Positions 6,603-58,414 of a stretch of DNA of 64,000 nucleotides are shown piece after piece (the first letter of the stretch is position 1; each line of letters starts with the position of its first letter). This DNA comes from a bacterium (GTDB lineage Bacteria; UBA8248). The position numbers and the translations under genes were made by a program. The stretch lies in NCBI GenBank assembly GCA_965261085.1, contig OZ253442.1, forward strand, positions 1,888,001 through 1,952,000, written 5' to 3'. Under the pieces are notes generated by a model. The model made no database searches. It was not told the origin of the DNA and saw only the letters and a program-made list of their open reading frames with translations.

Positions 6603-7649
6603 CTACAAACCCCGCCAGGCGAGGCCGTTCACGACGCCTAAGGGCGCTTGGCCCGCCAGGGCGCGGTGGATGTTCGCGAAGAAAATCTCGATTTCCTTGA
6701 TGATGTTTTCATCGTCTCCGCCCGCGCAGTGCGGCGTGGGGATGACGTTGGGCAGGCGCAGCAGGGGGTGTGATGCCGGAAAGGGTTCCGGGTCGAAAAC
6801 GTCGAGACCGGCTCCGCCGAGGTGGCCGTCTGAGAGCGCGCGATACATGGCTTCCTGATCGATCAAGGCCCCGCGCCCGATGTTCAGCAGGTACGCACCC
6901 TTGGGAAGCGCGCGAATTTCTTTTTCGCCGATGATGCCGCGCGTCTCATCGTTTAAGCCCACGCCGACCAGGAGCGCTTCCGCATTTCGGAACAACTCCT
7001 CACGCGCCACGGGCTTGGCGCCTAGCGCCTCGTCCACGGATTCGGGCAGCGGTGTCCTGTTCCAATACTGAATCTCCATCCCGAACGCCCGGGCGCGGAG
7101 CGCCACGCCGCGGCCGATGTCGCCCATCCCCAAAACCCCCAGGCGCATCCCGCGAAGGGGGGCGATTCCCTGGGTTTGCGTCCAGTTGTACGCGCTGCCG
7201 TCGGCCCGCCTGGGAGACGCGGGGTTGTTCGAACCCTCCCGGGCGGCGCGCACCGCAACTTCGAAATTTCTGGCCAGCGCGAGCAGCATCGTCATGACGT
7301 GATCCGCCACCGAATCGGTGATCGGCATGGGGAAGGTCATTACGGGCACGCCCGCCCCCGTGGCGCGTTCGATTTGCAGTTTTTCAAAAAAATAGCCGCC
7401 CGCCTGGATGAGTTTCAGCTTTTTCGCGCGCTCGTAAAAATCACCGGGAAGCGGATCGTTTTCGCAAAAGAAGAAATCCGCTTCCTCAAGCGCCTCCATC
7501 CGCTTCTCGGCGTCGGGCTCGATGATGAGTTCTATCTTCTCCTCATCCAGCGCGCGGGCCATGCGCTCCTCGATTGCGGGCGAGACGGGCCTGCCGCGCA
7601 AGGCGCGGATGCAGGGCAGCAGACGGGTGACGACGCGGACCCGGCGCAT
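6603..7649 (-). CDS. D-isomer specific 2-hydroxyacid dehydrogenase
   Basis: GMGDIG Rossmann motif, NIGRG, LDVFDPEP, TPHCAG. Confidence 0.9.
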   Translation of the reverse strand: MRRVRVVTRLLPCIRALRGRPVSPAIEERMARALDEEKIELIIEPDAEKRMEALEEADFFFCENDPLPGDFYERAKKLKLIQAGGYFFEKLQIERATGAGVPVMTFPMPITDSVADHVMTMLLALARNFEVAVRAAREGSNNPASPRRADGSAYNWTQTQGIAPLRGMRLGVLGMGDIGRGVALRARAFGMEIQYWNRTPLPESVDEALGAKPVAREELFRNAEALLVGVGLNDETRGIIGEKEIRALPKGAYLLNIGRGALIDQEAMYRALSDGHLGGAGLDVFDPEPFPASHPLLRLPNVIPTPHCAGGDDENIIKEIEIFFANIHRALAGQAPLGVVNGLAWRGL

Positions 7650-7652
7650 GGG

Positions 7653-9346
7653 TTATTCCGTCTTTCTCAGGAAACCGAAATCACAGCCTTGGGGCGCCTG
7701 GAGCACGTTTTCGATGAAGAGCCTGCCGTAGCCCCTCTCATAATGGGGCGACCCCGGCTCCCAGGCGGCGCGGCGGCGTTCGAGTTCTTCTTCCGGGACG
7801 TTCAGATCGATCCTTCGGTTCGGGACGTCCAGGGTGATCATGTCCCCGTCGCGAACCAGGGCGAGGGGGCCTCCAGCGGCCGCCTCGGGCGCAGCGTGGA
7901 GCACAATGGTCCCCGACGCCGTTCCGCTCATGCGCGCGTCCGAGACGCGCACCACGTCGCGCACGCCCGCTTCGAGCAGCTTCTTGGGGAGGGGCAGGGA
8001 GCCTGCCTCCGGGAAGCCGGGCGCGCCGATGGGGCCGGTGTTCTGGAGCACGAAAACGCTCTCCGCCGTCGCGGGAAGGTCGGGGTCGTCGATTCGCTCG
8101 ATCATGTCCTGCTGGGATGAGAAGACCACGGCGGGGCCTGTATGCGTCAGTAAATCGGAACTGGCAGCGAAATCTTGATGACCGCTCCGTCGGGCGCGAG
8201 CGAGCCCTTGACGATGACGAGGCCGCCTTCTTCCGAAATAGGCTTCTCCCGCGTGTAGATGACGTCCTGCCACGGCTGCGCCCCTTGGACTTGTCTGAGG
8301 TTTTCCGTCACGGTCTCGCCCGTCACCGTCAGACAGTCCCCGTGGAGCAGGGGTTCGAGTTCTTTCATCACCACGGGAATGCCGCCCGCCGCCGCGAGAT
8401 CCTCCATGAGGTGCTTTTTGCCCGATGGGCGGATGTTGCCGAGCATGGGCGTTGTGCGCGATATTTCATCGAACAAAGAGAGAGGGAGGTCGATCCCCAG
8501 GCGTCCGGCGATAGCCGGCAGGTGAACGACGGCGTTCGTCGAGCCGCCCACGGCCATGAGCACGCGGATGGCGTTCTCGAACGCCTCGCGCGTGATGATC
8601 TTATCAGGCGTGATGTCCTTCTCGATCAGGTCGACGATGCGCCGCCCGCTTTGCTCCGCCAGACGAATGCGTTGCGAGTTCACCGCCGGAACCGCCGCAA
8701 GGCCGGGGAGCATCATGCCCATCGCCTCGGTGAGGGACGCCATCGTGCTCGCCGTGCCCATCACCATACAGGTTCCCGCTGAGGGGAAGAGCGAACCCTG
8801 GACTTCTTCGAGCCGTTCATCGTCGAAATTGCCCGCCCTGTATTCGGCCCACGTTCCTCGGCAATCCGAACAAGCGCCCAGCACCTTGTCCTCGAAGCGT
8901 CCGCCGATCATCGGCCCCGCCGTCACGCAGATGGCGGGAATCTCCGCGCTGGCCGCGCCCATGAGCTGTGCGGGCAGGGTCTTGTCGCAGCCGCCGAGCA
9001 GCACCACGCCGTCCATGGGCTGTCCCTTTATCATCTCCTCGGTATCCATCGAGAGGAGGTTCCTGAAGAACATGGCCGTGGGGTTCATGTACATCTCGCC
9101 CAGAGAGATGGTGGGAAACTCCAGCGGCAGGCCGCCCGTCTGCCAGACGCCGCGCTTGACGGCCTCGGCGATCTCCCTCAGGTGGCGATGGCAGGGGTTG
9201 AGTTCGCTCCAGGTCTGGGCGATGCCGACGATGGGTTTTTCCAGATCCTCTTTCGTCAGGCCGAACCCCCGCGCGTAAGCGCCTCTCGCGAAAGCGCTGA
9301 AACCCGGATCGCCATAGCTCGTCAGTCCTCTCAGGTGGCCCCGCAT
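7653..9346 (-). pseudogene. IlvD/Edd-family dehydratase interrupted by a single frameshift near 8168 (pseudogene or sequence error)
   Basis: N-terminal part (NPCH, GCDKT, GTCMVMGTAS, GGSTN) shifts frame at GAVIKIS; C-terminal part (AASSDLLTHTGPAVVF, SDARMSGT, HAAPEA) continues in another frame. Confidence 0.85.
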
Positions 9347-9512
9347 CTTGGAATCTTCTCCCCTGGATGTAAATTTTGTGGAATCCACCCACATCATTCC
9401 TCATGGGTGGGGAATGGGCAAGCGCGCTCAGGGTCATCTTTTGCGGCGGCTTTCCCTCATGCGCGAAACAGGGTAAATTTAATGATGGCTCAGGACTCGC
9501 GCGACAGGAGGG

Positions 9513-10103
9513 ATGAGCATGAAGAAGAGACTCTTTGCTTCGTTGCCGCCGCTGAAACGCTCCATACGTTCGATTCTCGTTTTGTTCACGCTTTGCGCCC
9601 TGGCCTCGGGCGCGGGATGCCTGTGGGGAGGGAAACCCGCCGAAGTCCCGCGCAGCGGCAAGGGCGAGATCGTCGTGACGAGCAAGCCCGAGGGCGCCGT
9701 CGTCATCTTTAATGGGAATCCGCGCGGGGAGGCATATTCCCTGAGACCCGTCGAGATCAAGGGCGTGGACTACGGGCGTCATTTGATACGGGCGGAGTTT
9801 CCGGGCTACGTCGGCCAGGTTTTGGAGGTCGACGTGCGCGCGAAGAAGATGCCCATCGAGATACGACTGAAGAAAGACGGAGCCGGGCGTCTGGTCGTCC
9901 GCTCGAACCCGCCGGGTGCGGAAGTCTTCATCGGGAGCCAGTATTACGGCAAAACCGATCCGGCGCTCGAAGTGACGAATCTCGCCCCGGGCGAATATTC
10001 GATGTGGCTGCGGCTGCCGGGGCATGGGATGGAGCGCCGCAAGGTCATCGTCGAGCGCAGGCGGGAGCGCCGCTACATGGTCGTCCTGGACAAAGCGCCC
10101 TGA
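9513..10103 (+). CDS. PEGA domain-containing protein, probable lipoprotein
   Basis: Two PEGA repeats (VTSKPEGAVVIFNG, VRSNPPGAEVFIG); hydrophobic signal ending GAGC. Confidence 0.8.
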   Translation: MSMKKRLFASLPPLKRSIRSILVLFTLCALASGAGCLWGGKPAEVPRSGKGEIVVTSKPEGAVVIFNGNPRGEAYSLRPVEIKGVDYGRHLIRAEFPGYVGQVLEVDVRAKKMPIEIRLKKDGAGRLVVRSNPPGAEVFIGSQYYGKTDPALEVTNLAPGEYSMWLRLPGHGMERRKVIVERRRERRYMVVLDKAP

Positions 10104-10371
10104 ATTCATCGAATCGGTGATCAGCCGGCCCTGATAGATCGGACGCACCTCGGTTTTGGGCGGCTCTTACACTCGCGCGATTCATTCAAGGAAAGTCACT
10201 CCATTTTCGGGAGGATTCAGGTTGAATTTCGCCATCTTTCGGGCTGCCCGAGGGGAGGGCTTGATTCATGATGGCGATGGCTTTATCTTGATGGACGTGA
10301 TCCGATGAAATTTTAGGACTTCTTCCGATGTGCGCGCCCCGTAGGTGTGGGAGGCGCCGAGGAGACGAGAG

Positions 10372-11478
10372 ATGTCCACCGAATACATATGGGCGCTTTG
10401 CTCCCACCGGGCGGGAGACGGGACGCAGGTGAACCAGAAAACGCCCGATCGTCCCGCCACCCTGGATTATCTCGCCGAGGTGACGACGGCGGCCGAAGAG
10501 GCGGGTTTCGCCAACATCCTCGTGCCGTGCGGCACGCACTGCATCGACGCCTGGACGGCCGCGGGCGCGATTTCGAGCCGGACCAAAAAAATCAGGTTCC
10601 TGGTGGCTTTGCGGCCCGGAATCACCGGCCCGGTCTACGCGGCGCAGCAGGCGAACAGCCTCGATTACCTGACCGGTGGGCGCTGCACGCTGAACGTGGT
10701 GACGGGCAGCACGCCCGTGGATCAGAAAAGATACGGAGATTTCATGCCGCATGACGATCGTTATGCGCGCACGGGGGAGTTTCTCGACGTGGTGCGCAAG
10801 CTCTGGAATGCGGACGGGCCGCTGGACTACAAGGGAAAATTCTTTGAAATCGAGAATGCGGGCATCTTTCCCGATCGGGTGACGAAGCCCAACCCCCCGA
10901 TTTTCCTGGCGGGAAGCTCCGAGCCGGGCAAGCGGGTGGCATGGGAGCACGGCGACGTGCACGTCATGTACGCCGCAGAACCCGAAGTCGTTGCGAAGGA
11001 CATCGAGGAGGGCAGGCGCGAGTCTCAGGCCTATGAGCGCGAGCGCCCTCTCAGTTACGGCATCCGTCATCTGGTCTGCGTGCGCGAGACGAGGGAGGAG
11101 GCGGTGCGCGCCGCCGAGGCGCTGATTGACAAGAGCGACATCTCGAACACGGGCGCGTGGGCCGACATGAAGAACAACACCGAATCCACCGGCCAGATGC
11201 GCATCAACGAGATGGGCTCCCGGGGAAATCTCTGGCTCACCGATACCATCTGGATGGGCGTGAACAAGGTGCGCGGCGGTGCGGGGACGATGTTCGTCGG
11301 CACGCCGGAGATGGTCGCGGGCGTGATTCGTGAGTATTACGACGCGGGCGTGCGGCATTTCATCATGAACGGATGGCCCCACAAGGAAGAAGCCGAAATT
11401 TTCGGCAGGGAGGTTCTGCCGCTTCTCAAGGATACCAACCCCATCGTACTGCCCGAGCCCGCCGGCGTCGCCGCGTAA
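10372..11478 (+). CDS. LLM-class flavin-dependent monooxygenase (SsuD-like)
   Basis: AEEAGF, FLVALRPG, LNVVTG, RYARTGEFL, GTPEMVA. Confidence 0.88.
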   Translation: MSTEYIWALCSHRAGDGTQVNQKTPDRPATLDYLAEVTTAAEEAGFANILVPCGTHCIDAWTAAGAISSRTKKIRFLVALRPGITGPVYAAQQANSLDYLTGGRCTLNVVTGSTPVDQKRYGDFMPHDDRYARTGEFLDVVRKLWNADGPLDYKGKFFEIENAGIFPDRVTKPNPPIFLAGSSEPGKRVAWEHGDVHVMYAAEPEVVAKDIEEGRRESQAYERERPLSYGIRHLVCVRETREEAVRAAEALIDKSDISNTGAWADMKNNTESTGQMRINEMGSRGNLWLTDTIWMGVNKVRGGAGTMFVGTPEMVAGVIREYYDAGVRHFIMNGWPHKEEAEIFGREVLPLLKDTNPIVLPEPAGVAA

Positions 11479-38417: not shown

Positions 38418-38492
38418 TGGTGGGCCGTACTGGATTTGAACCAGTGACTTCTGCCGTGTGAAGGCAGCGCTCTGCCGCTGAGCTAACGGCCC
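38418..38492 (-). tRNA. tRNA-Val(CAC)
   Basis: Reverse complement GGGCCGTTAGCTCAGCGG...TTCACAC...GGTTCAAATCC...CCCACCA. Confidence 0.96.
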
Positions 38493-44333: not shown

Positions 44334-46493
44334 ATGAAGGACGAAGTTGCCGCTTTAGAGCTAAGTGTCGTCGCCGGAATTGTCTGGCACGAGGGGCGCA
44401 TTCTTATTTGTCAGCGCCCTGCAGGCGGCCACATGCCGGGCTTCTGGGAGTTTCCGGGTGGCAAAATAGAGGGTGGAGAGAACCCCCAGGAAGCCTTGCG
44501 CCGCGAGATTTGTGAGGAACTCGGTATCGAAGTACGCGTTGGACGTCTTCACTGGGAGACCCGACATCGATACCCAGATAGAGATGTACACCTACGCTTT
44601 TATGATTGTGAATGGGAGAGCGGGGTGGTGAAGAATGTAGAGGTGGCCAAGTACGAATGGGCGGATCCTTCCTTATTGGGGTATTTTGATTTCCTGCCGG
44701 CGGATGTGCAGTTGATAGAATCTCTCATGAATGGCGAGAAAATACGAGATTCGGGCAATAGCGCAAAACCCGTTTCAAAGGCTGATTTAAGCGCCGCTTA
44801 TGATACGTGTATGAAAATCGTAGTCGGCCATTACGAGAATTTTCCCGTGGCCTCGAAGTTGCTGCCGGCGAAGATAAGACCGCATGTCGCTGCTGTATAT
44901 GCATTCGCCAGAGGTGCTGATGATATCGCGGATACGGCCAGGCCCGCCCATGAGCGTTTCGCTCGTCTCGATGAATGGGAAGAAAAACTTGTTTTGGCCC
45001 AGAAAGGAGTTGCGGAAACAGACGTTTTCATAGCGCTTTCTCATACGCTTCAGCAATTCGATTTGCCCTTACAACCTTTTCGGGATTTGCTCTCGGCGTT
45101 CAAACAAGACGTCACGGTTCTCCGGTACCCGAACTATGAAACCTTGCTCGATTATTGTCGCCGATCGGCGGATCCCGTCGGGCGAATCGTTCTCATGCTT
45201 CACGGGATCCGTGATGAGGAAGCTTTTCGTGCGTCGGATGCCATATGCACGGCCTTGCAGATTGCGAATCACTTACAGGATGTAAAAGAAGATGCCGAGC
45301 GAGGCATCATCTACATGCCTCAGGACGAGATGAAAAAATTCTCCGTCTCCGAGGATGATTTGCTCGCAGACGTGGCGACACCTCCACTACGCGCATTTCT
45401 GGTTTTTCAGATACAAAGGACGAAGCGCCTCTTCAAGCAGGGCCTGCCTCTTTTGTACCGTACCCGTGGCGCATTGGGCCGTGAGCTTCGTGCGATTTGG
45501 CGCGGAGGCGTCGCGGCGCTGGACTCGATTTCCCGTGAGAATTGGGATGTTTGCGCAGGCTCGCCGCTTTTGAATGGCAGGGATAAGGCCAAGTCGCTGC
45601 TTGCGGCGTTTCGCCCGGTCTATCCACTCGAATCCAATGTGGATCGGCATGCGGAAGAAGAGTTGAACCGTGCCTATTGCCGCTGGTTTATTCGAGCCAG
45701 CAAGTCGAATTTTTATCTGTCTTTTTTTAGCCTGCCCGCGGAGAAAAGGCGCGCCATCACAGCGGTGTATGCGTATTGCCGCATGGCCGACGACATCGCC
45801 GATGAGCCGGGGGAGATATCTGGCAAAAGGACCTTGTTGCGTGAGTGGAAAGAAGCGTTGGCTCAGTTGTGCGAGGAGAGTCCATCCCACCCGATAATCG
45901 GGGAACTCGCGTGGGCGGCGCGAAAATACGACTTGCCGCCGCAGCATTTCCGGGCGATTTGTGATGGGGTGGCGATGGATTTAGAGGAAAGTCGATTTGA
46001 AAATTTCTCAGATCTTGAAAATTATTGCGACAAGGTGGCTTCTGCAGTAGGGCTGGCGTGTCTGGGTATTTTCGGCGCAAAATCGGAGTTTGCGAAAGAA
46101 TATGCCGTTTGTTTGGGAAGAGCGCTTCAGATGACGAACATTTTAAGAGACGTTTGGGAGGATGCGCAGCAAGAGCGCTTTTATATTCCGAGAAGCGAAA
46201 TGCAGAATTATGGTGTAACGGTCTCCGATTTGAGAGACAAAAAAGATACTTCTCAGGTCTTGAGTCTTCTCCAGTTTCTGGCGCATCAGGCGCGTGGATA
46301 TTACGAGCGGGCGAACGAGGCCTTGCGCCACGAGAAAAAAGAGAACCTTCTTCCTGCGAGAATCATGGGCCGAATTTATCGGAGACTTCTAAGTGAAATG
46401 GAGGAGAATCATTTTCGGCACATGGATTATCGCCCCTCATTGAAGTCCAGGGAAAAACTACAAGAAGCGCTTCGCTGTTTTCTGGAATCATAA
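44334..46493 (+). CDS. Fusion of a MutT-like Nudix hydrolase, squalene synthase HpnC and presqualene diphosphate synthase HpnD
   Basis: WEFPGGK...ALRREICEELG Nudix box; HYENFPVAS / ADDIAD / NHLQDVKED (HpnC); SNFYLSF / ADDIADE / TNILRDVWED (HpnD); one uninterrupted ORF. Confidence 0.88.
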   Translation: MKDEVAALELSVVAGIVWHEGRILICQRPAGGHMPGFWEFPGGKIEGGENPQEALRREICEELGIEVRVGRLHWETRHRYPDRDVHLRFYDCEWESGVVKNVEVAKYEWADPSLLGYFDFLPADVQLIESLMNGEKIRDSGNSAKPVSKADLSAAYDTCMKIVVGHYENFPVASKLLPAKIRPHVAAVYAFARGADDIADTARPAHERFARLDEWEEKLVLAQKGVAETDVFIALSHTLQQFDLPLQPFRDLLSAFKQDVTVLRYPNYETLLDYCRRSADPVGRIVLMLHGIRDEEAFRASDAICTALQIANHLQDVKEDAERGIIYMPQDEMKKFSVSEDDLLADVATPPLRAFLVFQIQRTKRLFKQGLPLLYRTRGALGRELRAIWRGGVAALDSISRENWDVCAGSPLLNGRDKAKSLLAAFRPVYPLESNVDRHAEEELNRAYCRWFIRASKSNFYLSFFSLPAEKRRAITAVYAYCRMADDIADEPGEISGKRTLLREWKEALAQLCEESPSHPIIGELAWAARKYDLPPQHFRAICDGVAMDLEESRFENFSDLENYCDKVASAVGLACLGIFGAKSEFAKEYAVCLGRALQMTNILRDVWEDAQQERFYIPRSEMQNYGVTVSDLRDKKDTSQVLSLLQFLAHQARGYYERANEALRHEKKENLLPARIMGRIYRRLLSEMEENHFRHMDYRPSLKSREKLQEALRCFLES

Positions 46494-47849
46494 ATGTCTG
46501 AGCCTGTCGGATTCGAACGACCGGTTATCATCATCGGAGCCGGCGCAGCGGGATTGTCCGCTGCTTTGCGCCTTGCCGAGTCGGGTACCAAAGTTCTGGT
46601 GCTTGAGGCGGGGAAGCTTCTCGGCGGCCGGGCGCGTAGTTTCATGCATTCGTCCACGGGTTTGGAGTTGGACTGGGGTCCGCATTTGTTTATGGCGGCA
46701 AACCCGGCATTGCGCTCTTTGTTGGAAAGGGTGGGTGCTGCCGATGATGTTTTTTACTCTCCCTCTTTAGAGGTGAGCTACCGTATTTGGGAATCGGAGT
46801 TGGCCAGACGGACGCAATTGTCATTTCCAGAGGGCGGAGGGATTTTTGCGCAACTCCGAGGCTTGCTCAAATGGCGTGGCCCCCGTTTTTGGGAGAAAGT
46901 GAATCTTCTGAAAGGACTTTCGAAGATTATTTCGAAATCGAGTGATGAGATTCCGAATGAATCCATGGGTGAAATGCTCGAGCGTTTTGGCCAGAAAGAT
47001 GAAGCGGTGCGCTGGTTTTGGGAGCCGTTTGCGCGCGCGGTATTGAATTTGCCCTTAGAGCAGGGAAGTGCGGAATTGTTCAAGGCGGTGATCCGCGAGG
47101 CCTTCGCCCATGGCCCGAAAGGGGCCGCCTTAGGAGTGCCGATGAAGGCCCTGAGTGCTTTATGGGCTAACAGAGCCGCGCAAAGCATCCGGCGCCTGGG
47201 AGGAGATGTTAGGCTTCAGCAACCCGCACTCGGTTTTGACGTCAAAAATTCAAAAATGAGCGGTGTGATCCTGAAAGAGCGCGAGATCTTGTATGCAGCC
47301 GCAGTCATTTCCGCCGTGCCGCCGGACGTCCTTGGGAGATTGTTGGGTAACGAACTCAGGGAGCAAACACCTTTTTCGAATCTGGGGAAACTATGTCCGG
47401 GGCCTATCGCCAGTGCATATTGCTGGCTTGAAAAACCGGATGAAGGTCCTCCCTTTGAAGCCATTTTGGATGAGGACTGGGATTGGCTGTTTCGTCCTGA
47501 GGGAAGTGGAGGAAATGCGGGAAATCTGGTGTGCCTGTTGGCCGGTGCGGAGGATTCCATCGCATCTGAGGAACGGTCGATCATTGAGTCGTCTGCGAGA
47601 GATTGCCTTAATCGATTGATGCCCCGTAACCGTACTCGAAGTATTTTGGTGGTGCGAGAGCGTGCCGCTACCTGGGCGAACGGGGTGGCCGAACAAAGCT
47701 CCCGGATGGACACCCAAACGCCTGTAAAGGGTTTCTTTTTGGCTGGAGACTGGACGCGCACAGGTCTGCCGGCCACCGTGGAGGGTGCGGTGAGAAGTGG
47801 AGACAAAGCTGCAGAGACGGTCCTGGAGTATATCAGGGCCGGCACGTAG
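46494..47849 (+). CDS. hpnE: Hydroxysqualene dehydroxylase
   Basis: IGAGAAGLSAA, GGRARSF, ERAAT, LAGDWTRTGLPATVEGAVRSG; directly downstream of hpnCD. Confidence 0.88.
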   Translation: MSEPVGFERPVIIIGAGAAGLSAALRLAESGTKVLVLEAGKLLGGRARSFMHSSTGLELDWGPHLFMAANPALRSLLERVGAADDVFYSPSLEVSYRIWESELARRTQLSFPEGGGIFAQLRGLLKWRGPRFWEKVNLLKGLSKIISKSSDEIPNESMGEMLERFGQKDEAVRWFWEPFARAVLNLPLEQGSAELFKAVIREAFAHGPKGAALGVPMKALSALWANRAAQSIRRLGGDVRLQQPALGFDVKNSKMSGVILKEREILYAAAVISAVPPDVLGRLLGNELREQTPFSNLGKLCPGPIASAYCWLEKPDEGPPFEAILDEDWDWLFRPEGSGGNAGNLVCLLAGAEDSIASEERSIIESSARDCLNRLMPRNRTRSILVVRERAATWANGVAEQSSRMDTQTPVKGFFLAGDWTRTGLPATVEGAVRSGDKAAETVLEYIRAGT

Positions 47850-49988: not shown

Positions 49989-50831
49989 TTGTCGTTGAGT
50001 GACTCGCAATTAGAGGCTGTGTGTCATTTGTTGAATGATGGTTCACCGAGGGTGACGGCGGTTTTGGACCGCCAGGTTTCCGAATTCTCAATCGAGGAGC
50101 AGCAAAGACTCCTGAGCATATTGAAAAAGCGTGAGGTGAGCGATGTGAAACTGCCGCCATCGCTGAGGGAATTCCATTATAGGCAAATCGAAATTGCTTT
50201 TTCGGACTGGTCTCTTTCTTCGGTTGAAGATGTGGCTCTGGAAGATGCGTGCTTCTTGTTGGCGTCTATTGGCCATCCGCTCGAAAACATGGAAACGAAA
50301 AAAGACGAATTGCTGAGCATGGAAAATCATTTACGTAAACGTTTGGAGGGTATAAGTAAAGCCGAAGCTATTGTCGACGAAGTCGTGGAATATCTACACG
50401 GAGAGCTTCGCTTCGATGGCGATCGGGAGAATTATTATGATGCGCAGAATAGTTTCATGAGTCGCGTGCTGGAGCGCAGACGCGGCATTCCCATATCACT
50501 TTCCGCGTTGTATTTGATTCTCACCGCGCGATTGGGGCTTCCTTTTCACGGAGTCGGGATGCCGGGGCATTTTATCGTAAAATACCAAGCTGATGAGGAC
50601 CCCATATTTCTGTATCCCTTCGATAGGGGAAAACGCTTGAGTGTTGGAGATTGCGCGGCGATCGTACGAGGACTCGGGTATCATTTCGACATGCGGTTTT
50701 TACAGGAAACCCCTCCTCGCCGTATCGTGGAGAGAATGCTCAACAATTTGCTTGGAATTTATAAGCGTGATGGGGAAGATGAAATGGTGACCTGCCTGCT
50801 TCGCTGTCGAGAGCTGGTGCAGCGGGTATAG
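49989..50831 (+). CDS. SirB1/transglutaminase-like domain protein
   Basis: NSFMSRVLERRRGIPISLS, GVGMPGHF, RMLNNL. Confidence 0.85.
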   Translation: MSLSDSQLEAVCHLLNDGSPRVTAVLDRQVSEFSIEEQQRLLSILKKREVSDVKLPPSLREFHYRQIEIAFSDWSLSSVEDVALEDACFLLASIGHPLENMETKKDELLSMENHLRKRLEGISKAEAIVDEVVEYLHGELRFDGDRENYYDAQNSFMSRVLERRRGIPISLSALYLILTARLGLPFHGVGMPGHFIVKYQADEDPIFLYPFDRGKRLSVGDCAAIVRGLGYHFDMRFLQETPPRRIVERMLNNLLGIYKRDGEDEMVTCLLRCRELVQRV

Positions 50832-50855
50832 CACCTTCATAAGAGGAAAAACGGT

Positions 50856-51320
50856 ATGCACTACTTCGAGTTGGCTGAAAATCTGGCTTTCGGGAGCCAA
50901 CCGGGTCGGAAGGATTTGGAATCCCTGGCGAACAAGGGAATAATAACCTTGGTGAATTTGCGTTTTGCCGATGAGGAAGAGCCTGAGCTACCACCCGAGG
51001 CGGAGAGAAAAGCGGCGCAAGAGTTAGGGATGAACTTCGTCCATATTCCCGTAAGCGCCGCGAATATGGACGATGCGTTATCGGGAGAAATCCATGAAGC
51101 ACTCCATGAGACCAGAAAAGATGGCCCGGTATTCGTCCACTGAAAAGGTGTGGGGCGAGCCGGGATTTGCTCGCTGATTCATGTGGCGGAAGAAAATGAT
51201 ATGGGTGGAGACGAGGTGCTGCAAAAGGCGGACGAAATAGGGCTTGACTGGGCAGTTTCCTCCATTGGGGGATATTTTGAAAAATTCGCCAACCAAAGGA
51301 AAAGAACTGGCACATCGTAG
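50856..51320 (+). CDS. DUF442/BLH-type phosphatase-fold sulfurtransferase-like protein, probable selenoprotein (TGA at 51141-51143)
   Basis: SQP, VNLR, HIPV, GPVFVH-TGA-KGVGRAG matching the HCxxGxR-type loop; frame continues 58 codons to TAG; hairpin GCGAGC-N8-GCTCGC 11 nt after the TGA. Confidence 0.8.
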
Positions 51321-51338: not shown

Positions 51339-51373
51339 AAAAAAGAGGGGAGTAAGTAACTCCCCTCTTTTTT
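51339..51373. terminator. Bidirectional intrinsic terminator
   Basis: AAAAAAGAGGGGAGT-AAGTA-ACTCCCCTCTTTTTT between convergent genes. Confidence 0.85.
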
Positions 51374-55570: not shown

Positions 55571-56506
55571 GTGGCCACGCATGAACTGGATACCACTGTC
55601 GATACCTGCCATTGGGGGTTTTATGATTCCGCCCTCGCTCCCGTCATGACAATCGCCTCTGGCGATACGCTCGTCGTGAAAACCGAATCGGGGCGGAAAG
55701 ATTTTTTAAAAAAATATCCAGAGAGACTTTCTGAAAATCTCAGAAAAATTTTGGAGACCATGGAGCCGGGCCCGGGGGCGCATATCATGACGGGCCCCGT
55801 GGCCATCGAGGGCGCCGAGCCCGGCGACGTGTTGGAAATCAAGATTCATGAGGTCAAACCCCGCTATGATTGGGGCTACAACGGATTCAGACCCTTGGTG
55901 GGCGGTCTGCCGGAGGATTTTCCTTATACGAGAATGGTGATTGTCGAGGTTGACGAAGAGAACGGAACGGGTGACTGGGGCGCGGGGGTCAAGGTGCCGC
56001 TCGGGCCTTTTTTCGGGAATTTCGGGGTGGCGCCGTCTTCAGCGCTTGGGCGTGTGCCCACGATTCCGCCCGGGGAGTGGGGAGGAAACACGGATTGTAA
56101 GGAATTTACGGCCGGCTCGACGATTTATTTGCCGATTTTCAACGAAAGCGCTTTATTCTCCGCGGGAGACGGGCATGGCTGCCAGGGGGACGGTGAGGCG
56201 AATATCAACGGGATAGAGATGGGCCTCATCGGTACTTTCGTGATGAACGTTCGCAAGGACATGAACATCAAAACGCCGCGCGCGGAAACGAAATCTCACT
56301 ACATTTTGATGGGTTTTGATCCGATTTTGGATAATGCGGCGAAGATGGCTTTACGGGAGACGATTCAATTCCTGGGTGAGCTTCGCGGCATGAGCCCCGA
56401 TGATGCGTATAGGCTATGCAGCTTGGCGGTCGACCTGCGCGTCACCCAAATCGTGAACGGAACCAAGGGCGTTCACGCGATGGTGCCCAAATCTTTGTTT
56501 GAATGA
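55571..56506 (+). CDS. Acetamidase/formamidase family protein 1
   Basis: HIMTGPVAIEGAEPGD, GGNTD, GDGHGCQGDGE, SLAVDLRVTQIVNG. Confidence 0.9.
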   Translation: MATHELDTTVDTCHWGFYDSALAPVMTIASGDTLVVKTESGRKDFLKKYPERLSENLRKILETMEPGPGAHIMTGPVAIEGAEPGDVLEIKIHEVKPRYDWGYNGFRPLVGGLPEDFPYTRMVIVEVDEENGTGDWGAGVKVPLGPFFGNFGVAPSSALGRVPTIPPGEWGGNTDCKEFTAGSTIYLPIFNESALFSAGDGHGCQGDGEANINGIEMGLIGTFVMNVRKDMNIKTPRAETKSHYILMGFDPILDNAAKMALRETIQFLGELRGMSPDDAYRLCSLAVDLRVTQIVNGTKGVHAMVPKSLFE

Positions 56507-56531
56507 GTTTCATTTTTAGAAGGGGCCATCG

Positions 56532-57479
56532 TTGCCCGAGCACGTGATTACGCAAAACCCCGACAACATTCAGTGGGGTTATTATGACGCCGTACTTTCT
56601 CCGGTTCTCACCGTGGTTTCGGGCGATGTGATCGAAATTCACACGGAACCGGGAATCAGGACCCTTGAGTCTCCGATTCGAGAAAGAGCGTCTGAAAACC
56701 TGCGTCATATAGCCGAGCGCGGAAAGAGGGATCTGGGCGGCCATATCCTCACGGGACCCATCGCGGTGGAAGGGGCCGTGGCGGGAGATGTCCTGGAGGT
56801 GAGATTTCTGGATATCTGGCCGCGCTATGATTGGGGCTTTAACGTCATCCGGCCCCTAGCGGGAGGTTTACCCGAGGATTTCCCGTATTCGAGAACAGTG
56901 ATCGTGGAAATCGACGAAGAGACGAATACAGGTGACTGGGGAGCAGGCGTGAAAGTGCCGCTTAGTCCTTATTTCGGTAATTTCGGTGTGGCGCCGCCCA
57001 GCGATTTTGGTCGTGTTCCATCCACTCCTCCGGGAATCTGGGGAGGAAACATGGACAACAAGGAACTCATCGCGGGTTCTCGCGCTTATCTTCCCGTATT
57101 CCACGATGGCGCTTTGTTCGCAATAGGTGACGGACACGGCTGCCAAGGGGATGGAGAGAGCTGTCTGTCGGCCTTGGAATGCGGTATGTCCGCGAAAATC
57201 GAACTCATTGTCCGAAAAGATTTGAATTTGGAAATGCCCCGCGCGGAGACGACCACGCATCATGTTCTCATGGGATTCGACCCTATTCTCGATAACGCAG
57301 CCAAAATGGCTCTCAGGGAGACAATCAAGTTTTTGGGGAAATTGTGTGGCATGAGCAAAGATGATGCGTATACGTTGTGCAGCCTGGCCGTGGATCTGCG
57401 CATTACGCAGATTGTGAATGGGGTCAAAGGCGTTCACGCGATGCTGCCGAAAGAAATTCTTGATGAAGGAGTGTGTTGA
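56532..57479 (+). CDS. Acetamidase/formamidase family protein 2
   Basis: HILTGPIAVEGA, GGNMD, GDGHGCQGDGE. Confidence 0.9.
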   Translation: MPEHVITQNPDNIQWGYYDAVLSPVLTVVSGDVIEIHTEPGIRTLESPIRERASENLRHIAERGKRDLGGHILTGPIAVEGAVAGDVLEVRFLDIWPRYDWGFNVIRPLAGGLPEDFPYSRTVIVEIDEETNTGDWGAGVKVPLSPYFGNFGVAPPSDFGRVPSTPPGIWGGNMDNKELIAGSRAYLPVFHDGALFAIGDGHGCQGDGESCLSALECGMSAKIELIVRKDLNLEMPRAETTTHHVLMGFDPILDNAAKMALRETIKFLGKLCGMSKDDAYTLCSLAVDLRITQIVNGVKGVHAMLPKEILDEGVC

Positions 57480-58414
57480 TGGCGACTCATGAATTGGTTG
57501 CGAATCCGGATACCGTTCATTGGGGTCATTATGACGCCTCACTGGAGCCTGTGATGCGGATTCGCTCCGGCGATACGCTGGAGGTTCATACGGAATCCGG
57601 CAGAGAAGAATATCTGGCGGAACTCGGAGAACGGGCATCCCGGAATTTGCGGGATATTGTTTCGCAAGTCCCCCAAGAACTTGGTCCCCATATCATGACG
57701 GGCCCTGTCTCTATAGAAGATGCTCGGCCTGGAGACGTGCTGGAAGTTCGTATCCACGAGGTCAAGACGCGCTATGACTGGGGATATAACTCCATCCGGC
57801 CGATGATGGGAGGATTACCGGAAGATTTTCCGTATACGCGCACCGTCATAGTGGATCTCGATTTGGAAGCGCAAACAGGAGACTGGGGCGCGGGCGTCAA
57901 GGTGCCTCTGCGGCCGTATTTCGGGAATTTTGGTGTGGCGCCCCCGCCTTCCGTAGGCCGGGTGGGGAGCTATCCTCCGGGCGCCTGGGGCGGGAATTTG
58001 GATAACAAAGAACTCATTTCGGGTTCTATCGCCTATTTCCCTATTTTCAATGAGGGCGCGTTGTTTTCCGTAGGCGATGGGCATGGCTGCCAGGGAGATG
58101 GGGAGGCTTGCTTGACGGCCATTGAAACGGGCCTCTCGGGGACGATGGAAATTATCGTCCGAAAGGATTTGCACTTGGAAAATCCCCGTGCGGAAACCGA
58201 TACGCATTATATCTTGATGGGGTTTGACCCCATCCTTGATAACGCGGCCAAAATGGCGCTCCGGGAGACGATTCAGTTTCTCGGAGAGTTGCGAGGCATG
58301 AGCAGAGATGACGCCTATACGCTTTGCAGCCTCGCTGTGGACTTGCGGGTCACGCAAATCGTGAATGGCGTGAAAGGGGTTCACGCCATGCTGCCGAAAT
58401 CATTATTCACATAA
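57479..58414 (+). CDS. Acetamidase/formamidase family protein 3
   Basis: HIMTGPVSIEDA, GGNLD, GDGHGCQGDGE. Confidence 0.9.
   Translation: MATHELVANPDTVHWGHYDASLEPVMRIRSGDTLEVHTESGREEYLAELGERASRNLRDIVSQVPQELGPHIMTGPVSIEDARPGDVLEVRIHEVKTRYDWGYNSIRPMMGGLPEDFPYTRTVIVDLDLEAQTGDWGAGVKVPLRPYFGNFGVAPPPSVGRVGSYPPGAWGGNLDNKELISGSIAYFPIFNEGALFSVGDGHGCQGDGEACLTAIETGLSGTMEIIVRKDLHLENPRAETDTHYILMGFDPILDNAAKMALRETIQFLGELRGMSRDDAYTLCSLAVDLRVTQIVNGVKGVHAMLPKSLFT

Follow-up and report, generated by a model that had tools for sequence, protein, structure and literature searches.

A Probable Selenocysteine-Containing DUF442 Protein with a Phosphatase Fold from the UBA8248 Lineage and Its Possible Role in Sulfur or Selenium Transfer

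Introduction

Proteins of the DUF442 family have been described in two different ways, namely as sulfurtransferases (Blh, PMC5823870) and as phosphatases (NMA1982, PMC10716126). The DUF442 domain of Blh alone was reported to transfer the sulfur of thiosulfate to cyanide or glutathione (PMC5823870). On the side of selenium (Se), five rhodanese-type selenoprotein forms, but no phosphatase, are included in a table of 119 prokaryotic selenoprotein families (PMC13188914). In this study, we analyzed a 64,000-nucleotide stretch of contig OZ253442.1 (positions 1,888,001 to 1,952,000 of the forward strand, assembly GCA_965261085.1; hereafter the window) from a bacterium of the GTDB lineage UBA8248, in which an earlier note based on the sequence alone had placed a selenocysteine (Sec, U) in the active-site loop of a DUF442-like protein. 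The gene concerned (window positions 50856-51320, + strand) is almost certainly that of a genuine selenoprotein, whose in-frame TGA codon, judging from comparative sequence evidence, is recoded as Sec.

Conservation of the In-Frame TGA Codon

Under genetic code table 11, the open reading frame (ORF) at 50856-51143 (+) ends with the residues GPVFVH and a TGA stop. The codons from 51141 onward are TGA AAA GGT GTG GGG CGA GCC, after which the frame is open as far as a TAG at 51318-51320; the ORF end, the codon series, and the continuation to 51320 had all been read in this way in the earlier note. If the TGA at 51141-51143 (+) is translated as U, the product has 154 amino acids (aa) with Sec at residue 96, the catalytic Cys position of the family.

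Homologous loci were collected by a scan of GTDB genomes that confirmed 419 stretches, from which the best 80 loci were kept, with search patterns biased to the Sec clade. TGA was present at the catalytic-Cys codon in 28 of these best 80 of 419 loci, which come from 22 genomes (six with two paralogs). These 28 are the loci nearest to the query (39-97% identity over the first 95 residues), and every one of them carries TGA, whereas the other 52 have Cys in 50 cases (32 with TGC/TGT by coordinate and 18 with a Cys motif) and are unreadable in two. Together with the window gene, the aligned codon is TGA in 29 of 29 clade genes, whose pairwise identity ranges from 34 to 96%; among the aligned Cys-type homologs, the catalytic position is Cys in 96 of 106. 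The search for further TGA orthologs that the earlier note had proposed was therefore productive, and the read-level error it had considered as an alternative is contradicted by the identical codon in 29 genes, down to 34% identity. According to their record titles, the 22 TGA-carrying genomes are mostly Nitrospinota or simply 'bacterium', along with Nitrospinaceae and Ca. Tectomicrobia, and we take them to be members of the GTDB phylum UBA8248. In BSepDB, three UBA8248 genomes that bear NCBI names of this kind, with 48-54 genes, are among the ten most selenoprotein-rich organisms (PMC13326102).

The frame beyond the TGA is also conserved. In 27 of the 28 TGA loci, it is open for 52-58 codons and can be aligned with the Cys homologs. 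The ratio of nonsynonymous to synonymous substitution rates (dN/dS) downstream of the putative Sec insertion sequence (SECIS) is 0.19 in group A of the TGA genes (126 of 171 pairs) and 0.24 in group B (15 of 15 pairs), counting the pairs retained by a dS<2 filter, and the values before the TGA are 0.11 and 0.17, respectively. On these alignments, the downstream frame is under purifying selection in the two large groups; the decaying frame envisaged in the earlier note was not what was observed.

Current protein records reflect the conventional reading of the codon. A protein search returned 28 matches, and 26 of the 27 that were compared terminate at the His preceding the TGA position. The exception, P0015, is an internal-deletion form in which the active-site segment is gone in frame and the C-terminal tail is retained. 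In a wider set, 49 of 198 protein matches stop short of the catalytic position, at the preceding His, including P0158, which is probably unrelated. The database entries found are 95-aa forms only, two of which are named 'sulfur transferase domain-containing protein'.

A Conserved SECIS-Type Hairpin

In bacteria, UGA is read as Sec through a SECIS hairpin by the SelB mechanism. The rules given for bacterial SECIS elements in the legend of Fig. 2 of PMC13188914 comprise a loop of 3-9 nucleotides (nt), a stem of 4-16 base pairs (bp), a G among the first two loop nucleotides, a spacing of 16-37 nt, and an energy of at most -7.5 kcal/mol. In the window gene, the arms GCGAGC (51155-51160) and GCTCGC (51169-51174) form a stem, the first arm beginning 11 nt past the TGA. 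A G-U pair closing it brings the stem to 7 bp (51154-51175, +), and its 8-nt loop, CGGGAUUU, starts with CG and is located 17 nt downstream of the TGA. The arms and the 11-nt distance, taken there for the classic SECIS spacing, were correctly recognized in the earlier note, although its 6-bp stem is in fact one of 7 bp when the G-U pair is counted. Applied by our own script (not bSECISearch), the rules are passed by 29 of 29 TGA genes, which, being related, are not independent trials, as well as by 3 of 32 Cys genes and 125 of the 2029 TGA triplets of the window.

Codon usage in this region is highly restricted. At codons 100, 102, 103, 105, and 106, synonymous diversity falls to zero; these are the five lowest of 109 columns (mean elsewhere 0.43), and the Arg101 codons in the clade are CGA and CGG only, the two that preserve the base pair. 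Stem pairing is intact in 175 of 175 cells, and the three variable pairs change on one side only, to G-U or A-U. As read from the aligned genes, the SECIS region is under RNA-level constraint.

Phylogeny and Host Decoding

A midpoint-rooted tree built with FastTree from 65 sequences (29 Sec, 34 Cys, and 2 truncated) places the Sec genes together with P0086 and P0030 (support 0.925). P0030, a Cys form that is 46% identical to the Sec protein, is nested in the Sec clade beside group A (support 0.81), and its protein retains the residues of the SECIS region, Cys105 included. Because of this nested position, the tree suggests a single gain of Sec and a single return to Cys, with modest support. 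The basal protein P0086, which is also cut at the His, represents a possible further Sec lineage; a search with P0086 returned only P0086 itself. Groups A and C have a common SirB1-like/ilvD neighbourhood (21 loci), yet they are not joined in the tree (support 0.46).

TGA also serves as an ordinary stop codon in these organisms: seven homologs terminate with it at the point where others have TAA or TAG, and three neighbouring genes encode Trp by TGG and contain no internal TGA. In the host, TGA is thus a stop codon and, probably, a Sec codon as well. Two other selenoprotein candidates are present in the window. One is a DsbA-like gene of a known family type (U-P-F-C, PF01323; 41784-41152, - strand), whose table-11 ORF begins after the TGA (41733-41731) and for which TGA was observed in 19 of 19 loci where the pattern found it. 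The other is a TlpA/redoxin-like gene (U-I-N-C, AhpC-TSA/Redoxin; ~20561-20040, - strand, TGA 20363-20361) with an N-terminal signal-like segment. Moreover, in 6 of 6 loci (L028, where it spans ~9400-9979, L019-L022, and L025) the gene directly 5' of the group-B paralog encodes an OsmC-like selenoprotein, with 163 bits for NF041052 against a cut-off of 95. Upstream of this pair of selenoprotein genes are a glyoxalase-family gene and two metallo-beta-lactamase (MBL)-fold genes, which have weak ODP/Lactamase_B scores and are at most candidate persulfide dioxygenases.

Domain, Fold, and Active Site

The 154-aa product consists of a DUF442/BLH phosphatase-like domain. It matches PF04273 (BLH_phosphatase; 34 bits against a gathering cut-off of 26.1), which we take to be the domain formerly called DUF442, and three related models of dual-specificity and protein tyrosine phosphatases (DSP-PTP) pass too. 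The best NCBIfam matches are the Blh sulfur transferase/dioxygenase (E 1.5e-17) and the TIGR01244 sulfur transferase. An AlphaFold model based on a 107-sequence alignment has a predicted local distance difference test score (pLDDT) of 95.3, and the closest solved structures are 3gxg (Z 18.4, root-mean-square deviation 2.4 A) and 2f46 (Z 16.1, 2.5 A), both over 140 residues; many PTP/DSP phosphatases match the fold at Z 15-17.5.

The active-site loop K-G-V-G-R (51144-51158, +) gives the motif U-x4-R, in which Arg101 is invariant in the clade and the +1 position (residue 97) is Lys or Arg. The earlier note had equated this loop with H-C-x-x-G-x-R. The Cys/Sec and Arg positions do match C-x4-R, but Val occupies +3 and the Gly is at +4. 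The C-x5-R signature is absent, and there is a one-residue gap against the HCSAGVGR of classical PTP/DSP. The E-loop residue Glu40 (50973-50975, +), aligned with E53 of NMA1982, is found in 29 of 29 Sec genes and 104 of 106 Cys-type homologs. Position 70, equivalent to the general-acid D71 of NMA1982, which lies five residues past the conserved Pro, and Asn in the window protein, is variable (N 14, E 7, T 4, S 2, and A 1 among 28 of 29 rows). The clade has an additional invariant residue, Cys105 (51168-51170, +), whose codon overlaps the 3' arm of the SECIS; it is present in 29 of 29 Sec genes versus 2 of 106 Cys-type homologs, and in homologs the position is F, L, or M. Cys105 may be a second catalytic thiol or a by-product of the RNA constraint.

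Proposed Mechanism

UGA would be decoded as Sec via the hairpin directly downstream, yielding a single-domain DUF442/BLH protein of the cysteine-phosphatase fold, in which Sec would act as the nucleophile within a shortened U-x4-R loop. By analogy with the Blh domain, a Sec-dependent sulfur or selenium transferase, as the earlier note had proposed, is the most likely function, at moderate confidence. This proposal is based on the sulfur transfer by the DUF442 domain of Blh together with the chemical precedent of the Sec-containing rhodanese forms, and also on the invariance of Arg101 and Glu40 and the positive charge added by Lys/Arg97. In the rhodanese/Cdc25 superfamily, a shorter loop is associated with sulfur transfer and a longer loop with phosphatase activity, a pattern with which the short U-x4-R loop would be consistent. 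The target of the selenolate would be a sulfane sulfur, in thiosulfate or a persulfide, or else a selenium donor, while the substrate would be held by Lys97 and by Arg101, the latter positioned by Glu40. An enzyme-Se-S(-) intermediate would then form with departure of sulfite, and the sulfur would be handed to a thiol, such as glutathione, or to a partner protein. More speculatively, the Sec protein may be a selenium carrier that hands either selenium or a persulfide on to the co-encoded OsmC-like selenoprotein.

Several observations weigh against a transferase function. The scores for TIGR01244 (48.3 bits; paralogs 48-51) and Blh NF040641 (63.6 bits) are below the respective cut-offs of 85.85 and 625, and the protein is a 154-aa single domain without the fused ETHE1 dioxygenase. 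Gly is at +3 in 102 of 120 C-x4-R homologs, whereas the U-K-G-V-G-R loop has it at +4. The neighbourhood of the main locus contains the SirB1-like gene, ilvD, and a thiamine pyrophosphate (TPP) enzyme and no sulfur-metabolism genes. In addition, NMA1982, a DUF442 protein with the C-x4-R motif that the earlier note had not mentioned, was published as a weak phosphatase (PMC10716126). Its activity is, however, very slow, with a kcat of 4.4e-5 per s, and partly dependent on Asp71, a residue not conserved in the Sec clade.

Alternative Explanations

Sec incorporation itself has to be weighed against a highly improbable set of alternatives in which the TGA is not Sec. The gene might be a nonsense pseudogene or contain a sequencing error, the 95-aa product might be functional as it is, the code might be reassigned, or the SECIS might direct the insertion of a residue other than Sec, such as Cys. 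What speaks for them, and against recoding, includes the exclusive presence of 95-aa forms in databases and the locus L016 (10001-10465), which carries G100R together with another in-frame TGA, at Trp132, and is, from its sequence, probably either a copy in decay or the result of an assembly error. No component of the Sec machinery was observed directly: neither ARAGORN (window and 28 flanks) nor Rfam (window) detected a tRNA-Sec, selA, selB, and selD not having been searched for, and support for a Sec-decoding host is indirect, from the other selenoprotein-type genes. On the same side, the downstream dN/dS of group C is 0.67, a noisy value from 3 pairs only, and the SECIS script passes both other selenoprotein candidates of the window but fails the OsmC-like control gene, so it is not fully sensitive. 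The isolated hairpin is not unusually stable (z -0.9 and -1.65, and +0.4 for a differently folding 90-nt stretch), and the case for SECIS is one of conservation; two-sided compensatory changes occur in 0 of 7 stem pairs, with an uninformative shuffle control, and because no pair varies on both sides, proof by covariation is lacking. These points are outweighed by a TGA shared by all 29 genes, the purifying selection downstream, the frozen SECIS codons, and the use of TGA as a stop by the same genomes, and the model predicts that a 95-aa piece would be without the nucleophile, Arg101, and three helices. A pseudogene, a read error, and an alternative genetic code were rejected on the basis of TGA conservation, downstream selection, and the TGA stops and TGG Trp codons.

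With Sec accepted, two other activities compete with sulfur or selenium transfer. A redox enzyme (an oxyanion/arsenate, peroxide, or persulfide reductase) cycling via a Sec96-Cys105 selenenylsulfide is rather unlikely, though phosphatase-fold arsenate reductases offer an analogy. The near-exclusive association of Cys105 with the Sec genes, its retention in the Cys form P0030, and the coupling of a paralog to an OsmC-like selenoprotein gene would fit such an enzyme, as would the fact that redox enzymes are the majority of listed selenoproteins (PMC13188914). However, Cys105 is probably buried in the predicted helix 100-113, given the F/L/M at this position in homologs. Two bases of its codon, G and C, also belong to the SECIS 3' arm; this limits the choice to Cys, Arg, Ser, or Gly, so that Cys105 may be the least harmful option. 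Even less probable is an atypical, NMA1982-like C-x4-R phosphatase, in which a natural phospho-selenocysteine intermediate may occur. It would account for the PTP/DSP fold, with Z of 15-18 to many phosphatases, and for the conserved catalytic position, Arg, and E-loop Glu; furthermore, NMA1982, which has an equal loop length, hydrolyses 6,8-difluoro-4-methylumbelliferyl phosphate (DiFMUP) in a Cys95/Arg100-dependent manner (PMC10716126). On the other hand, the C-x5-R motif and a conserved Asp at the D71 position of NMA1982 are both absent, the turnover of NMA1982 is given there as at least 100-fold under that of human PTPs (PMC10716126), and the 119 listed selenoprotein families include no phosphatase (PMC13188914).

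Genomic Context

The gene is preceded by a Shine-Dalgarno-like AGAGGA (50842-50847, +) located 8 nt before the ATG, and comparable purine-rich motifs were seen before homologous genes whose upstream sequences were inspected. A SirB1/transglutaminase-like gene (49989-50831, +; NCBIfam/Pfam) lies upstream on the same strand with a 24-nt gap; it is a conserved neighbour, immediately 5' in 21 of 28 TGA loci, and the surroundings of the main locus offered no hint of function. Between the selenoprotein gene and the convergent ilvD, a hairpin with A- and U-tracts resembling a bidirectional intrinsic terminator was found at 51339-51373 (-29.2 kcal/mol, z -7.7, reached in 0 of 200 shuffles), which bears out the strong terminator noted earlier just after the TAG, although a terminator scan of the window does not list it. 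At the gathering score, Rfam reports two tRNAs in the window; 14 sub-threshold matches around the terminator are chance ones. In one Ca. Tectomicrobia locus (L024), the operon convergent to the Sec gene (6791-10628, - strand) encodes a molybdopterin oxidoreductase exported by twin-arginine translocation (TAT), with a chaperone, an Fe-S subunit, and a regulator; being a single case, it was given no weight.

Elsewhere in the window (44334-47849, +), a gene for a 719-aa protein in which a NUDIX domain is joined to two squalene/phytoene synthase domains is followed by a flavin amine-oxidase-family gene; the arrangement resembles that of the hopanoid genes hpnCDE, with an unusual fusion. Three similar tandem genes of 311-315 aa (55571-58414, +) look, on our assumption, like acetamidase/formamidase paralogs. 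The guanine-cytosine (GC) content falls from ~0.59 (1-40 kb) to ~0.52 (42-64 kb) soon after a tRNA-Val gene (38418-38492), and the lower-GC block (~40000 onward) is syntenic in relatives.

Comparison with Known Systems

New bacterial selenoprotein families appear regularly. The 119-family prokaryotic table of 2026 (PMC13188914) has, throughout its length, no DUF442, PF04273, TIGR01244, or phosphatase entry, and no selenoprotein model of NCBIfam 20.0 matches the Sec protein or its paralogs (E up to 0.1 or 0.01), in line with the new family that the earlier note had put forward as a candidate. A DUF442 selenoprotein is not mentioned in the accessible text of the deep-Sep paper, BSepDB (PMC13326102), or SelCysML, and the partial genome list in the BSepDB supplement contains no match for the family or lineage names. 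Literature searches, with the BSepDB family list and most subscription literature outside their scope, found no prior description of a Sec DUF442 family. Identity with TsoY (NF047643, motif UxxV) was considered and is unsupported, as there is no NF047643 match.

The selenoprotein family is apparently unlisted, and no family in the 119-family table has this fold. The novelty lies in the fold and the family, since the rhodanese fold, which the earlier note had not mentioned, already provides five Sec-containing sulfurtransferase forms outside the thioredoxin fold. The Sec DUF442 family is narrow in range. It is likely the first natural Sec enzyme of the PTP/DSP superfamily, representing an unlisted family, duplicated and retained in a Sec-rich lineage, that would have independently reached rhodanese-like Se-S transfer. 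With it, the bacterial selenoproteome gains a family and a fold, and truncated database entries can be corrected. Selenium in nature usually goes to redox or chalcogen chemistry, and the existence of a Sec form therefore favours sulfur chemistry as the real job of the DUF442 family. The Sec protein and P0030 constitute a natural Sec/Cys pair for comparing DUF442 activities.

Among described systems, the DUF442 domain of Blh from Xylella/Agrobacterium (NF040641, PF04273, TIGR01244) shares with the Sec protein the domain family and the C/U-x4-R loop length and is the source of its best NCBIfam matches. The Sec protein differs from it by Sec in place of Cys, a stand-alone gene without the ETHE1 dioxygenase or the bigR/TauE operon, the Gly shifted to +4, the extra invariant Cys105, and scores that miss both NCBIfam cut-offs. 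NMA1982 (2f46) and the Shewanella DUF442 protein (3gxg/3gxh) are the nearest solved structures and the top family-profile matches, with the same C-x4-R loop and E-loop Glu, but they are Cys enzymes of 18-25% identity, and the general-acid Asp71 of NMA1982 is lacking in the Sec clade. Classical C-x5-R PTP/DSP (Tk-PTP, TpbA, and KAP) have a similar fold (Z 15-17.5) and a locally similar sequence (HCSAGVGR versus HUKGVGR), whereas in the Sec protein the loop is shorter by one residue, a conserved general acid is missing, and the nucleophile is Sec. The rhodanese-like selenoproteins (forms 1-5; PF00581, NF041203, and NF045694) also combine a Sec nucleophile with a short loop ending in Arg and a presumed sulfur-transfer chemistry. 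Their fold is different, with no PF00581, NF041203, or NF045694 match to the Sec protein at E up to 0.1, and if the function is shared, the likeness between the two is convergent.
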